DNA of 64,000 bases from Ostreococcus lucimarinus (lineage: Eukaryota), in the NCBI GenBank assembly GCA_000092065.1, contig CP000596.1; one strand, written 5' to 3'. The notes beneath the pieces are model-generated. The model was not told where the DNA came from. It worked only from the letters and a program-made list of their open reading frames with translations, and made no database searches. This document shows, piece by piece, positions 23,670-27,857 of this stretch (positions are counted from its first letter, which is position 1; every line of letters starts with the position of its first letter). Position numbers and translations under genes: made by a program.

Positions 23670-25100
23670 TCAGTTCATGCCCGTCCCGTGCGCGATCAGC
23701 CCTAGGAGTCCGCCGAGGACGACGACCAACGGGGCCTGGATCAGCGTCCACGTTCCCCTTGGCAACTTGACGACGTGCACGCAAAACGTGCAAATCATTC
23801 CGATGCACACGGTAGCGTTCGGAAACGGACTCAGAGATTTGACCTTGAACGCGATGTTGAACGCGGCGGCGACGACGAGTCCGACGGCTGACGCATTCAG
23901 TCCGGGCAGAGCGCGTCTGTAGACGCGCCATTTTCGAAATTTCCCCCAGAACGGAAGCACGGCGAAGATGAGAATCACGCCCGGACCGAACAACCCGAAC
24001 CACGCGCACATGATGCCGACGACGACGTTCACGCCCGCGCGTCGCGCGGCGACGGCGCCGAGGTACGCGCTGAGATTAAACAACGGCCCCGGCATGGCTT
24101 GCGCCATGGCTAAACCGGCGAAAAACTGTTCTTCGGTGACCCAAGACGTGAGCGACTCGCTTCTGACGCAACTCGTCGCGCCACTCGCGATCGAGCACGT
24201 CGTTTCGTACTGCACGACGTCGTTCAACAACAGCGGAAGCACGACTTGACCGCCGCCGAAGATGATCGAACCCGTGCGCCAAAACGCCTCGAACCAATGC
24301 AACTCCTTATTCGACGCGTAATCCGTCTTCGACACCGCGATCCCGAGCGCGACGAGCGCGACGATCCACCCCACGATCAAGCACCCCCCGACCGCGGGCG
24401 TGAGACCGAGATGCGCCACCTCCTCCGCGTCTTCGTCTCCGCTCGCGTCCTCCCTCGCGCCGCGCGTCTCGCCGTCCTCCTTTTTCGCCCACCTCTCCCG
24501 CGCGCGCGCCTCGCACGTCGTCGCGCATCCCCCGAACGCGATCAACGCCGGAAACAACCACGCCGTCTGACGATAACACGCCACCACCGCGCTCGTCGCG
24601 CACAAAACCTTCGTCGTCGCCGTCTTCGCCCGCGACCGCGTCAGCGACGCCGCCGCCGACGCGATCAACCCCGCGCCCGCCGCCGACAGCCCCCCCGCGA
24701 GCGCTCGAAGCGTTTGTCCTGGATTCACCAGCGTTTCCGCCGCGCCCGCGCCCGCGAGCGACATCAGCAGCAGTCCCGGATACTGAAACAGCGTCCCGCT
24801 CAGCGCGCCCCCCGCGACGCCGCCCCTCGCGATCCCGATCGCGAACGACATCTGCGTCGACGTCGGTCCCGGCAGGCACTGCCCGAGCGCCAGCAGCTCC
24901 GCGAACGTCCCGCTCGTCATCCACGGCCGCGGAGCGCGCTTCACGAAGGTTTCGTTGAAGAGCGCGACGTGCGCGGCGGGACCGCCGAACGCGGTCCAGC
25001 CGAGCAAAGCGAACGACGACGCGATCTCGCGACGCGGCGACGGCGCGACGTAAGACGCGCGCTCCTCGTCGCCGTCTCGCGCGATCTCGCGGTGCGCCAT
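23670..25100 (-). CDS. chrA: chromate ion transporter ChrA (duplicated CHR domain)
   Basis: Start MAHREIARDG.. Two CHR halves are present (FGGPAAHVALFNETFVKRAPRPWMTSGTFAELLALGQCLPGPTST.. and a second ..FGGGQVVLPLL..AMPGPLFNLSAYLG..), giving ~12 TM. The longer ORF-track N-terminus is a low-complexity extension. Confidence 0.8.
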   Translation of the reverse strand: MAHREIARDGDEERASYVAPSPRREIASSFALLGWTAFGGPAAHVALFNETFVKRAPRPWMTSGTFAELLALGQCLPGPTSTQMSFAIGIARGGVAGGALSGTLFQYPGLLLMSLAGAGAAETLVNPGQTLRALAGGLSAAGAGLIASAAASLTRSRAKTATTKVLCATSAVVACYRQTAWLFPALIAFGGCATTCEARARERWAKKEDGETRGAREDASGDEDAEEVAHLGLTPAVGGCLIVGWIVALVALGIAVSKTDYASNKELHWFEAFWRTGSIIFGGGQVVLPLLLNDVVQYETTCSIASGATSCVRSESLTSWVTEEQFFAGLAMAQAMPGPLFNLSAYLGAVAARRAGVNVVVGIMCAWFGLFGPGVILIFAVLPFWGKFRKWRVYRRALPGLNASAVGLVVAAAFNIAFKVKSLSPFPNATVCIGMICTFCVHVVKLPRGTWTLIQAPLVVVLGGLLGLIAHGTGMN

Positions 25101-25246
25101 CGCGCGCGCGCAGGTGCGCGACGCGCGACGCGCGGCGCGCGAGGGCGACGAGGACGCGGCGCGCGCATCGAGGGTGAAAAAAAAACGCTCGAGGAGACGA
25201 AAAAACGGCACACGACGACGCGCGAGCGACGCGCGAGCGACGCGCG

Positions 25247-26906
25247 ATGACGCGCGATGACGCCGACGGGGGCGCGCGGGATGATTTATACGACGCGCTC
25301 GGCGTCGCGCGGGACGCGACGAAGACGGAGGTGCGCGCGAGACGACGCGAGGACGACGCGACGAGGACGATGGATGCGTTTCGATGACGACCGCGTGGAT
25401 AGGGGAGGGGCGACGACGACGACTGACGGCGAGGCGCGACGACGGCGCGACGACGGCGCGGCGTAGGTGCGACGGGCGTATCGAAATTTGATCACGCGCG
25501 CGCATCCCGATAAGGGCGGAGACGCGGTGACGTTCGCGAGGATCCAACGCGCGTACGACGTGCTGAGCGACGACGCGAAGCGCGCGTCGTACGACGAGAC
25601 TGGGACGTTTGAAAAGACGGTCGAAGAAGAATTGCTCGATGAATTCGGTGGAGGGGTGTTTCGCGATAAGATGAAGGAGGAGGAAGCGCGCAAGGAGTCT
25701 CTGGCCGAGGCGCTCGTGAAGACGGAGAAGGAGAAGGGGTCGCACACCGCCGGATTCGAAGCGTGGCTCCGAGCGCGCGGACCGGATTCGAACAAGACGA
25801 TCGGGGTCGAAGACATGATCGATCGATTCGGGGTGAACAAAGGTTCGTACGACGAAGTGGTGCTACCGAAGATTCGTGCGTACCAGGCGAGCGTCACAGC
25901 GGCGAACGCGATTAAATTGGGATCGGCGGCGATTCCTCCCACGCTCGAGTGGGGCGAGGTGCTCGTCAACGTGCGCGTCGCGCCGATTAATCCCGCCGAT
26001 ATCGACGCCAAGACGCTCGCTTCGCGCGCGAAATTCCCTTTCGTCGCTGGATCCGATGGTGTCGCCACCGTGGTGAAAGTCGGCGCGGGCGTGAAATCTC
26101 TCAACGAAGGCGATTGGGTGCTGCCGTACAAAGCCGAGATGGGCACGTGGCGCTCGCTCGCGGTGTGGAAGGAGAAGGACCTAATCAAGCTTCCTTCGGA
26201 CATTTTACCCATGGAATACGCGGCGATGATGCGTGAAATGTGCGTCGCGTACCGTTTACTGGAAGACTTCGGAAGCTTGAAACCGGGAGACGCCGTGGTG
26301 CTCAACGCCGCGACGTCCACCGTCGGTCAGTGCGTCGTGCAACTGTGCGCCATGCTCAAGCTTCGCGCCGTCGCCGTCGTGCGCTCGCGGAAAGATTTCG
26401 ACAAGACGGCGGCGTGGTTGAAATCACTCGGCGCTTCGGAGGTGTTGAAAGATGAAGGCTCGATCGCGACCGAGCTCACGTCGCGAAACTTGTTCGCCAA
26501 GCCGAGACTGGCGCTCGACGCCGTCGGCGGCGCCTCGGCGGTGCGTCTCGCCGAATCCCTCCAACCCGGTTGTCCGCTCATCGTCTACGGCAACATGAGC
26601 GGTCGCGCGGCGACGTTCCCATGGCACGCCTGGACGCAATCCGCACTCATCGTTCGCGGGTTCTCGTTGCGCCAATGGATGACTGAAAACAAGAAAAAGG
26701 TGCCCAAGATGATGGAGACGCTCGGCAAGCTCGCGCGCGCCGACAAACTCGCGATTCAGTACACCGACTACGAACTCTCGAGCGAGTTCGAGGAGGCGCT
26801 CGAACACGCGCGCGAGGACGATCGATGCACCAAAGTACTGTTACGCGTGAACGATATCGGGACGACGTACGACAGCGCCGAAAACGCCGCCTCGCCGACG
26901 GCGTGA
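25247..26906 (+). CDS. J-domain (DnaJ) fused to MECR/ETR1-like medium-chain enoyl reductase, two exons (25247..25330, 25467..26906)
   Basis: Exon 1 MTRDDADGGARDDLYDALGVARDATKTE, donor |GTGCGCGCGAG, 136-nt intron, acceptor gcgtag|. Exon 2 VRRAYRNLITRAHPDKGGD..(HPD motif)..then ..VNVRVAPINPADI..GSDGVATVVKVG..GDWVLP..GTW.. of the MDR / trans-2-enoyl-CoA reductase family, all in one continuous frame. Confidence 0.65.
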
Positions 26907-27130
26907 GCGGTCCCGCGACGGGCGTCTCGACTCGGGCGACGGCGACCGCGCGGGCGAGACGAGACGAGACTATTCAGGGACGAAGACTACACGAATAAAT
27001 GCACGAAACTGTAATGATAATATTTCATCCTCAGTTCCTAAACTGCGGCGACCTATCGCGTCGCCTCTTCAAAGCGCGTACGTACCGAGCGTCGACGCTC
27101 GATGGCGTCGTCCTCGCTTCGCGGCGCGCG

Positions 27131-27857
27131 TTTAGTAGAGTTCTTCCTCCATGTGCGTCTTGACCGTGCAGTCCGACGTCGGGTACGCGACGCACGTGAG
27201 CACGAAGCCGTTACCCATTTGGTCGTCGTCCAAGAAAGATTGGTCGGATTGGTCGATGGAACCAGCCTGCGCGCGATCGTCTCGTCAGTCTCGTCATCCA
27301 GAAACGTCCCATCGTCGGTTCGCGACTCGTCGAGAGTCCCTCGCGGGCGAGTGACGTCAACGTACCGTGACCTTACCCGCGCACGACGAGCATGCGCCCG
27401 CGCGGCACGAGTACGGCAAGTCGATGCCGGCTTCCTGCGCGCGTCGCAAAAGAAATCACCCCTCCGTCAGTCTCGCGCCCTCGCGACGCCCGCGCGTTCG
27501 CGCGCGACGCGCCCGACGCGCATCGCGTCGATCGCCCGATCGTTGGGCGGCGCCGCGTCAGCGTCGCGCGACGCGATTCGCCCCCGTTCCCGCGCGCGCG
27601 ACGCCGCGCGCGACGCCGCGCGCGTCGCGACCCGACGATTAAAAATTCGCTCGAGCGTTTCGCGCACTCACCTCAGCGGCGTCGAGGATGTACGTGTCGT
27701 CCGCGCACTCGATCGCTTGCGCCCCCTCCGGGGTTTCGAGCGTGACCTGGAAGCGCGCGATCGTCGATCGGCGCGCGACGGCGGCGGAGGATCGGCGCGC
27801 GCCCGCGAAGGACGCGACGGGGGCGGCGGTGACGGACATCTTCGTGACGGCGGACAT
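27131..27857 (-). CDS. PETF: plant-type [2Fe-2S] ferredoxin with chloroplast transit peptide, three exons (27672..27857, 27365..27433, 27131..27265)
   Basis: Exon 1 [51 protein letters not shown] |GTGAGTG. Exon 2 [23 protein letters not shown] |GTACGT. Exon 3 [44 protein letters not shown]. The four cluster Cys are present. Confidence 0.8.

Follow-up and report, generated by a model that had tools for sequence, protein, structure and literature searches.

A J domain and a MECR-like reductase domain in one algal polypeptide: a candidate Hsp70 co-chaperone from Ostreococcus lucimarinus

Results

A two-exon gene on the plus strand of a 64,000-nucleotide stretch of Ostreococcus lucimarinus CCE9901 DNA (GenBank assembly GCA_000092065.1, contig CP000596.1; this whole stretch is called the window below) encodes a J domain and a domain similar to the enoyl reductase MECR within one protein, which we refer to as J-MECR (Table 1). 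Window positions 24800–27400 were read directly together with their open reading frames (ORFs), and in-silico splicing gave a product of 507 aa. A preliminary description of the locus had proposed that removal of a 136-nt GTGCGC..TAG intron leaves one continuous frame, and both its coordinates and its gene model proved correct. Three intronless ORFs of the window are identical to CCE9901 proteins (XP_001421827.1, XP_001421967.1 and XP_001421834.1) encoded on a 428,333-bp chromosome, in agreement with the prasinophyte origin that the preliminary description had implied. The ATG at 25247 is the first in-frame ATG downstream of an upstream in-frame stop, and the exon-1 frame, if left unspliced, meets a stop after 46 codons. 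The His-Pro-Asp (HPD) motif, helices II–IV of the J domain and the whole of the medium-chain dehydrogenase/reductase (MDR) domain lie in the same unbroken ORF, that of exon 2; the fusion is therefore independent of the intron, and only helix I of the J domain requires splicing. The stop or frameshift between the domains that the preliminary description had named as grounds for abandoning the fusion is not there. We conclude that the gene model, a single polypeptide fusing both domains, is confirmed.

The exon junction (...TKTE|VRRAYRNL...) is bridged in the 75% identical relative P0006, which has TKIEVRRAYRNL unbroken. Three further loci (L007, L008 and L009; 90, 81 and 76% identical, respectively) share the same layout and keep the exon-1 peptide, with the pattern [DS]LY.ALG......TK.E followed by GTGCGA or GTGGGT. 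Their introns lie at the same position, are 125, 118 and 113 nt long and unalignable, contain an ACTGAC or GCTGAC motif, and have TAG or CAG as their last letters, immediately followed by GT(G/A)CG.CG.GCGTAT; in the window intron, ACTGAC occupies positions 25422–25427, 40 nt upstream of the AG. Natural variants in metagenomes include a 1-nt insertion/deletion (indel) in the intron at 25400 (25399–25401) and either TAG or CAG at the 3′ splice site (25464; proteins P0122 and P0128). Considering that the indel and the TAG/CAG variation would be harmless only if the segment were removed, these variants support the intron. Where the allele is CAG, gene callers of the prokaryotic type carry the ORF on into the intron (MRFDDDRVDRGG...AAQVRRAY); P0122 and P0128 were thus rejected as evidence from spliced cDNA, the longer variants being read-through of the CAG-allele intron. 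Because such callers cannot splice, public ORF calls begin within exon 2 (472 aa). We also considered a repeated introner element and rejected it, as blastn of the intron against the window gave only GACGACG-type low-complexity matches. Exon 2 carries 1 single-nucleotide polymorphism (SNP) in its 1440 nt across seven sequences, and the upstream spacer carries many. In a metagenome collection, 813 blocks index the 472-aa ORF product exactly as encoded here, and the locus region is reproduced in six independent assemblies, which rules out the assembly error that had been envisaged at about 25.33–25.47 kb.

The J domain had been called canonical, and all of the J-domain features that we examined by sequence agree with this. 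Residues 13–71 matched Pfam DnaJ (PF00226) over profile positions 1–63 (E=4.4e-18; 65.6 bits, the cut-off being 27.8), the PDB J domains of DnaJ, DNAJA1 and DNAJB1 matched at E of about 1e-11 to 1e-12, and identity to the J domain of DNAJA1 was 45% by BLAST. An AlphaFold2 (AF2) model built from 59 family sequences (mean predicted local distance difference test score [pLDDT], 85) placed J-domain helices at residues 14–18, 26–40, 48–62 and 64–73 (pLDDT 87–93), with H41-P42-D43 between the second and third of them; P42 is invariant in the family, and H41 and D43 are nearly so. Pfam found neither a DnaJ_C domain (PF01556) nor a zinc finger (PF00684) in the 507-aa protein, and the BLAST alignment with the DNAJA1 N-terminus stopped at residue 82, indicating that this is a class C (type III) J-protein. 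Motif A of the region that follows (EFGGGVFRD) was considered as a vestigial Gly/Phe-rich (G/F) region, which the end of the DNAJA1 alignment at residue 82 did not support.

Although the reductase had been described as directly following the J domain, a conserved middle region of about 90 aa lies between them. It had no Pfam match and no PDB sequence match, and its identity as a known domain was rejected after a profile search with it alone gave only fragments of the same family and fragments of dinoflagellate J-proteins, with no new architecture. AF2 predicted a long helix at residues 80–105, after which pLDDT fell to 34–68, residues 106–160 being of low confidence. Within this low-confidence stretch lies the most conserved segment of the protein, the GFExWLRxR motif at residues 120–133. 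Its mean identity to the window protein, 0.84, exceeds the values for the J domain (0.59) and the MDR domain (0.60). Two of its residues, F125 and R130, do not vary across green, chromerid, haptophyte and unassigned metagenomic members. Docking motifs typically behave in this way, and the motif, in its flexible surroundings, is probably a docking or regulatory element. We define the family here by three elements in one chain, namely a J domain, a middle region in which F..(W/F)(L/M)R is invariant, and a MECR-like MDR domain, all of which are present in the window protein.

The C-terminal domain, as previously described, is a full MDR domain of the MECR type. Pfam ADH_N matched residues 191–271 above threshold (E=5e-12), and the ADH_zinc_N match at 314–445 scored slightly under threshold (30.1 vs 31.8). 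In phmmer searches the best PDB sequence match was human MECR (E=6e-53, residues 189–478), followed by Candida Etr1p (E about 1e-27). Foldseek agreed with this order: the top four structures were human MECR (1zsy/2vcy), with TM scores (TMt) of 0.85–0.90 and 35% identity, followed by Etr1p and then by quinone oxidoreductases. The glycine motif reads NAATSTVGQ here and NASNSGVGQ in the human enzyme; G315 and Q320 are invariant in alignment A1, the motif is retained in green-algal members, and the VVRSR, VGG and YG segments are retained as well. The NADPH-binding glycine motif of MECR is thus present.

The catalytic residue is Tyr94 in MECR and Tyr79 in Etr1p (PMC9899272, PMC10864336). HMMER and MAFFT both aligned human ...MIQGNYGLLPELP... 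with ...DA--KTLASRAKFP..., placing Y94 opposite a Leu or a gap, and in these alignments to human MECR the shortened loop at residues 204–218 contained neither Tyr nor His. Among 59 family members, those from Trebouxiophyceae, Chlorophyceae and Pedinophyceae keep GG[TVLMI]YG, and the distant member P0109 has a Tyr in a GY context. The catalytic Tyr is absent from Ostreococcus, from the Bathycoccus-like and Micromonas-like groups, from Chloropicon (which has His), Pseudoscourfieldia, Mesostigma and Chlorokybus, and also from the non-green members. Within the clade of the window protein, loop identity was 0–0.25 in three of four relatives, as against 0.83–0.91 for the rest of the MDR domain, and 0.67 in the closest relative, P0002; loop length varies among these close relatives too. 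Variation in both length and sequence between near relatives is the pattern of an unconstrained loop and not that of a catalytic one.

A second position is also changed. Human Trp311 (Trp322 in Etr1p) is presumably an active-site residue, an assignment that we take from the title of a single PDB entry for a Y79F,W322E mutant. Its context, GFWLSQW in the human protein, is GFSLRQW here, and of the 59 family members in alignment A2, 57 have Ser or Asn there. Canonical reductase chemistry has probably been lost or much reduced in the Ostreococcus lineage, and may persist in core chlorophytes.

A 12-aa acidic tail (MTRDDADGGARD) precedes the folded J domain, which begins at residue 13. In most of the 52 full-length members tabulated the N-terminal tail is 0–15 aa long and mostly acidic; seven of them have extensions of 24–56 aa. 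Judged from its sequence, such a short acidic tail is unlike a mitochondrial or plastid presequence. By inspection, no SKL-type peroxisomal targeting signal (PTS1) was found at the C-terminus, which is ...ASPTA in the window protein and usually ...GVTY in the family, and peroxisomal targeting was rejected since these ends are unlike PTS1. The N-terminus would point to a cytosolic (or nuclear) location. Measured against MECR, the protein has the fold and the NADPH motif, and lacks the catalytic Tyr, Trp311 and, judged from sequence, the presequence.

The full-length query retrieved 189 proteins at E<=1e-10, and the wider profile search covered 1.84 billion representatives. PF00226 occurred together with ADH domains in 58 of the 120 best clusters listed, and many of the other sampled clusters were 5′-truncated ORF calls starting in or just past the J domain; recurrence on this scale indicates that the fusion is under selection. 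The architecture is present in dozens of green algae, among them Chloropicon, Pseudoscourfieldia, Micractinium, Chlorella, Auxenochlorella, Prototheca, Picochlorum, Pedinophyceae, Volvox, Gonium, Pleodorina, Tetradesmus and Cymbomonas, and the early streptophyte algae Mesostigma and Chlorokybus. The preliminary description had not recognised it from model organisms, and no animal, fungus or land plant was found among the 120 clusters. Orthologs occur in prasinophytes, where the preliminary description had proposed to look for them, but the fusion is peculiar neither to this genome nor to prasinophytes, being widespread in green algae and found in Chromera and Phaeocystis. Several transcript-derived ORFs are marked 'complete', so in those species the J and MDR parts lie on one mRNA. 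From dinoflagellates (Symbiodinium, Polarella) there are fragments in which the J domain is present along with the middle motif.

The non-green members comprise Chromera velia Cvel_4507 (P0163, 934 aa), two transcriptome ORFs (P0156 and P0185, 832 and 843 aa), Phaeocystis cordata P0167 (696 aa) and a related metagenomic protein, P0170. The first three have an extra C-terminal Abhydrolase_2 domain (acyl-protein-thioesterase/lysophospholipase-type), and the last two an extra SAM domain. The nucleophile motif of the hydrolase is GFSLG in Chromera and GFDQG and GFGKG in the other two, so that the nucleophile Ser is absent from two of the three; this suggests further pseudoenzyme domains and fits a family of binding modules better than one of catalysts. 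The thioesterase-like fusion itself points to ligands related to acyl-thioesters.

In a neighbour-joining (NJ) tree built without support values, 24 of 25 fusion proteins had MDR domains that clustered apart from canonical MECRs, P0109 falling with the canonical group, which fits a single old fusion and paralogy to MECR. The chlorophyte Polytomella has a separate MECR of 41 kDa (PMC9637915). The search for a separate canonical MECR attributable to Ostreococcus yielded only a GC-rich marine metagenomic protein, P0237 (locus L010), which has a clear presequence and keeps Tyr94 and Trp311; no named protein was close to P0237, the best matches being animal MECRs at about 50% identity.

The surrounding gene order is GATA factor, unknown 522-aa protein, OTU protease, chromate transporter, J-MECR, ferredoxin and Sec7 guanine nucleotide exchange factor, and it is identical in six metagenome assemblies. 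The chromate-transporter-like gene (Pfam Chromate_transp; about 23677–25100, minus strand) is divergent from J-MECR; its product begins MAHREI at about 25100, and the two start codons are about 146 bp apart. The minus-strand ORF at 23670–25745 overruns the true start of this gene because of the high GC content. The gene convergent with J-MECR (27137–27857, minus strand) encodes a plant-type [2Fe-2S] ferredoxin in three exons. Its introns, GTGAGT...ACTGAC...CAG and GTACGT...ACTGAC...CAG, provide a reference for splice signals within the window, with ACTGAC shortly before CAG. A second ATG, 10 nt past the start of J-MECR and out of frame, opens a 69-codon ORF (25257–25466, plus strand) that continues across the intron and stops exactly with the TAG of the 3′ splice site; it is probably meaningless and could matter under intron retention.

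Table 1. Positions of the J-MECR gene, its encoded domains and its flanking sequences in the window
Feature	Position	Strand	Remarks
5′ intergenic region shared with the divergent chromate-transporter-like gene	25101–25246		putative promoter
Exon 1	25247–25330	+	start codon; 28 codons, MTRDDADGGARDDLYDALGVARDATKTE; acidic 12-aa N-tail and J-domain helix I (DLYDALGV...TKTE)
J domain	25283–25601 (intron inside)	+	residues 13–73; HPD, residues 41–43
Intron	25331–25466	+	phase 0; 136 nt; GTGCGC...ACTGAC...TAG
Exon 2	25467–26906	+	uninterrupted 479-codon ORF and TGA (26904–26906); rest of J domain including HPD, middle region, MECR-like domain
Conserved middle region	25602–25871	+	residues 74–163, about 90 aa; motif A EELLDEFGGGVFRD at 82–95; low-confidence linker
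Family signature motif SHTAGFEAWLRARG	25740–25781	+	residues 120–133
MECR/Etr1-type MDR domain	25872–26852	+	residues 164–490; AF2 pLDDT >90
Degenerate catalytic loop ADIDAKTLASRAKFP	25992–26036	+	residues 204–218; without Tyr94/Tyr79 equivalent
Dinucleotide-binding glycine motif NAATSTVGQCVVQ	26304–26342	+	residues 308–320; aligned to human NASNSGVGQAVIQ
Probable 3′ untranslated region	26907–27014	+	AATAAA (26994–26999) and TGTAA (27010–27014), putative polyadenylation signals

Discussion

Hsp70 specificity is supplied by J-domain proteins. We lean, with no great confidence, towards the interpretation that J-MECR is a cytosolic class C co-chaperone of Hsp70, in which the MECR-derived domain serves to bind NADPH or an acyl ligand, as opposed to being the mitochondrial enoyl reductase. 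According to this model, the J domain, with its intact HPD, would dock on Hsp70 and trigger ATP hydrolysis, and the C-terminal two thirds, a MECR paralogue with fold and NADPH motif kept, would bind NADPH. MECR is a homodimer, and by analogy the MDR domain may add dimerisation. With the proton donor, Trp311 and the presequence lost, the domain is most likely a specificity module and not a reductase of fatty-acid synthesis; binding of NADPH and/or of an acyl-thioester-type ligand or client would decide where or when Hsp70 is loaded, and the GFExWLRxR motif could mediate a further contact. The preliminary description had instead proposed chaperone-coupled regulation or assembly of the enzyme. 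That proposal assumes an active reductase and fits poorly with a deleted Tyr94 loop, a replaced Trp311 and a missing presequence; the MECR-like domain is more likely a targeting or ligand-binding module of the J-protein than a chaperone client. A more specific version, which we put forward tentatively, is that the pseudo-reductase senses NADPH/NADP+ or the status of acyl-thioesters (acyl-CoA, acyl-ACP [acyl carrier protein] or lipidated proteins) and so couples lipid or redox state to cytosolic Hsp70 in algae. The J domain and the GFExWLRxR motif would then do the coupling, and the repeated loss of the catalytic Tyr would mark the passage from enzyme to sensor or adaptor.

Several observations weigh against a non-catalytic co-chaperone. 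The whole MDR domain is under strong purifying selection (0.83–0.91 among relatives), and an active enzyme would look alike. Mutation of Tyr79 in Etr1p leaves some activity, and the proton donor is a different one in other MDR enoyl reductases. As core chlorophytes keep GxYG, catalysis was probably a property of the ancestral fusion. Tyr249 (LPYK; listed at 25989–25991) aligns beside human P130, and the loop that holds P130 touches the one with Tyr94 (PMC9899272). Within the Ostreococcus/Bathycoccus-like clade Tyr249 is conserved, the position being Phe in most other prasinophytes that lack Tyr94 and mostly Leu or Met in members that keep GxYG. Tyr249 may thus be a relocated proton donor, or a packing substitute. 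Finally, over-expression of a Haematococcus 'MECR' raised lipid content (PMC10067919). That gene owes its name to its resemblance to a MECR entry from Chlorella sorokiniana, and it possibly belongs to the J-MECR family, which we note as a lead only; PMC10067919 makes no mention of a J domain.

These observations, together with the conserved fold and NADPH motif, the 35% identity to human MECR, the GxYG retained in Trebouxiophyceae, Chlorophyceae and Pedinophyceae and the Tyr of P0109, and the Abhydrolase_2 fusion of Chromera-type members with its hint of acyl-thioester chemistry, would suit an active extramitochondrial reductase with a built-in J domain. Such an enzyme would reduce enoyl-thioesters or alpha,beta-unsaturated carbonyls with NADPH, using Tyr249, another residue or solvent as proton donor, and the role of its J domain would be to recruit Hsp70 to the enzyme or to the complex containing it, which is essentially the idea of the preliminary description. 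We consider this possible but doubtful, because the deleted Tyr94 loop varies in length and sequence between relatives that are 80–90% identical, which is unexpected for a catalytic loop; because position 249 is Phe, Leu or Arg, residues incapable of proton donation, in other Tyr-less lineages; because Trp311 is replaced in all but two of the members aligned; and because Chromera is without the conserved glycine of the NADPH motif.

The same losses make it highly improbable that J-MECR is the true mitochondrial enoyl-ACP reductase, a MECR orthologue that has gained a J domain and enters the organelle by means of an import signal that is internal or non-canonical. MECR is its closest characterised homologue, and a separate canonical MECR attributable to Ostreococcus was not found in our search, as such a reading would lead one to expect. 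However, the N-terminus is acidic (MTRDDADGGARDD), the J domain starts at residue 13 and most family tails are equally short, both Tyr94 and Trp311 are missing, the fusion MDR domains cluster apart from canonical MECRs, and Polytomella has its separate 41-kDa MECR (PMC9637915). Least probable of all, to the point of being negligible, is an artefact of annotation or assembly in which adjacent genes or a pseudogene were misjoined or the intron is false. The public 472-aa ORF calls that begin within exon 2 could suggest it, but HPD and MDR domain share one ORF whatever the intron, the identical product and region recur in 813 collection blocks and six independent assemblies, exon 2 shows a single SNP, the intron position is conserved in relatives, and the architecture is kept in dozens of species, including transcript-derived complete ORFs.

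Each new partner domain of a J-protein points to a new site of Hsp70 action. A MECR-type oxidoreductase in this role is apparently undescribed, yet it is conserved in green algae, haptophytes and chromerids, and the groups that carry J-MECR include globally abundant marine picoplankton. If the sensor or adaptor function is true, the family would be a clear case of an enzyme fold turned pseudoenzyme that ties lipid or NADPH metabolism to proteostasis; if catalysis has been kept, we would be dealing with an enoyl reductase outside mitochondria that brings its own chaperone recruiter. At the database level the architecture is not new, since the sequences can already be found there under automatic names; in the literature searched, algae included, we found no study of it and no description of a fusion of a J domain or DnaJ with an enoyl reductase or MECR. 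The labels 'trans-2-enoyl-CoA reductase' and 'mitochondrial enoyl-ACP reductase' are probably wrong for Ostreococcus-type members and could mislead metabolic reconstructions. On the sequence criteria applied here, J-MECR should not be filed as MECR despite the database names of its orthologues.

Compared with MECR and Etr1p (PDB 1ZSY, 2VCY, 7AYB and 1GU7), residues 164–490 of J-MECR have the same two-domain, zinc-free MDR fold, and PINPxD, the NAxxSxVGQ glycine motif and the VGG and YG segments are common to both. Unlike these enzymes, J-MECR has no presequence and no Tyr94/Tyr79 in its shortened loop, has Ser in place of Trp311, carries a J domain and middle region of 163 aa at its N-terminus, and clusters separately. 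With class C J-proteins it shares an N-terminal J domain with HPD, the lack of a G/F and DnaJ_C unit, and a specialised partner domain that presumably determines at which site or on which client Hsp70 acts. ERdj5/DNAJC10, in which a J domain is combined with thioredoxin domains, and auxilin/GAK are class C J-proteins with partner modules of their own. DnaJ-Fer, a J domain joined to a ferredoxin (PMC3564930), is a further class C J-protein with a non-chaperone module. What distinguishes J-MECR from the known class C proteins is that the partner is a Rossmann oxidoreductase domain of the MDR/MECR type, for which no precedent among J-proteins was found in the literature searched.

Recruitment of MECR-type MDR domains as structural parts outside fatty-acid synthesis has a parallel in the NDUEG3 and NDUEG5 subunits of Euglena complex I (PDB 8IUF). 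In NDUEG3, too, the MDR domain is preceded by an N-terminal extension, here about 190 aa long. The match of NDUEG3 to J-MECR is confined to the MDR part (E=2e-25, 21% identity, TMt 0.66), for which reason we rejected it as a homologue of the whole protein; no J domain and no GFExWLRxR motif were found in it, and it is located in a mitochondrial membrane complex, unlike the location proposed here for J-MECR. Further close counterparts are the uncharacterised orthologues in databases, namely Chloropicon primus 'trans-2-enoyl-CoA reductase' (P0016), Volvox carteri 'molecular chaperone' (P0060), and the proteins of Pseudoscourfieldia marina and Chromera velia (Cvel_4507), both named 'J domain-containing protein'. 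They have the same layout of J domain, GFExWLRxR motif and MECR-like domain, the named green-algal members being 41–59% identical to the window protein over >90% of the length. Orthologues differ from it in the GxYG Tyr of core chlorophytes, in the added Abhydrolase_2 domain of Chromera-type members and in the added SAM domain of haptophytes.

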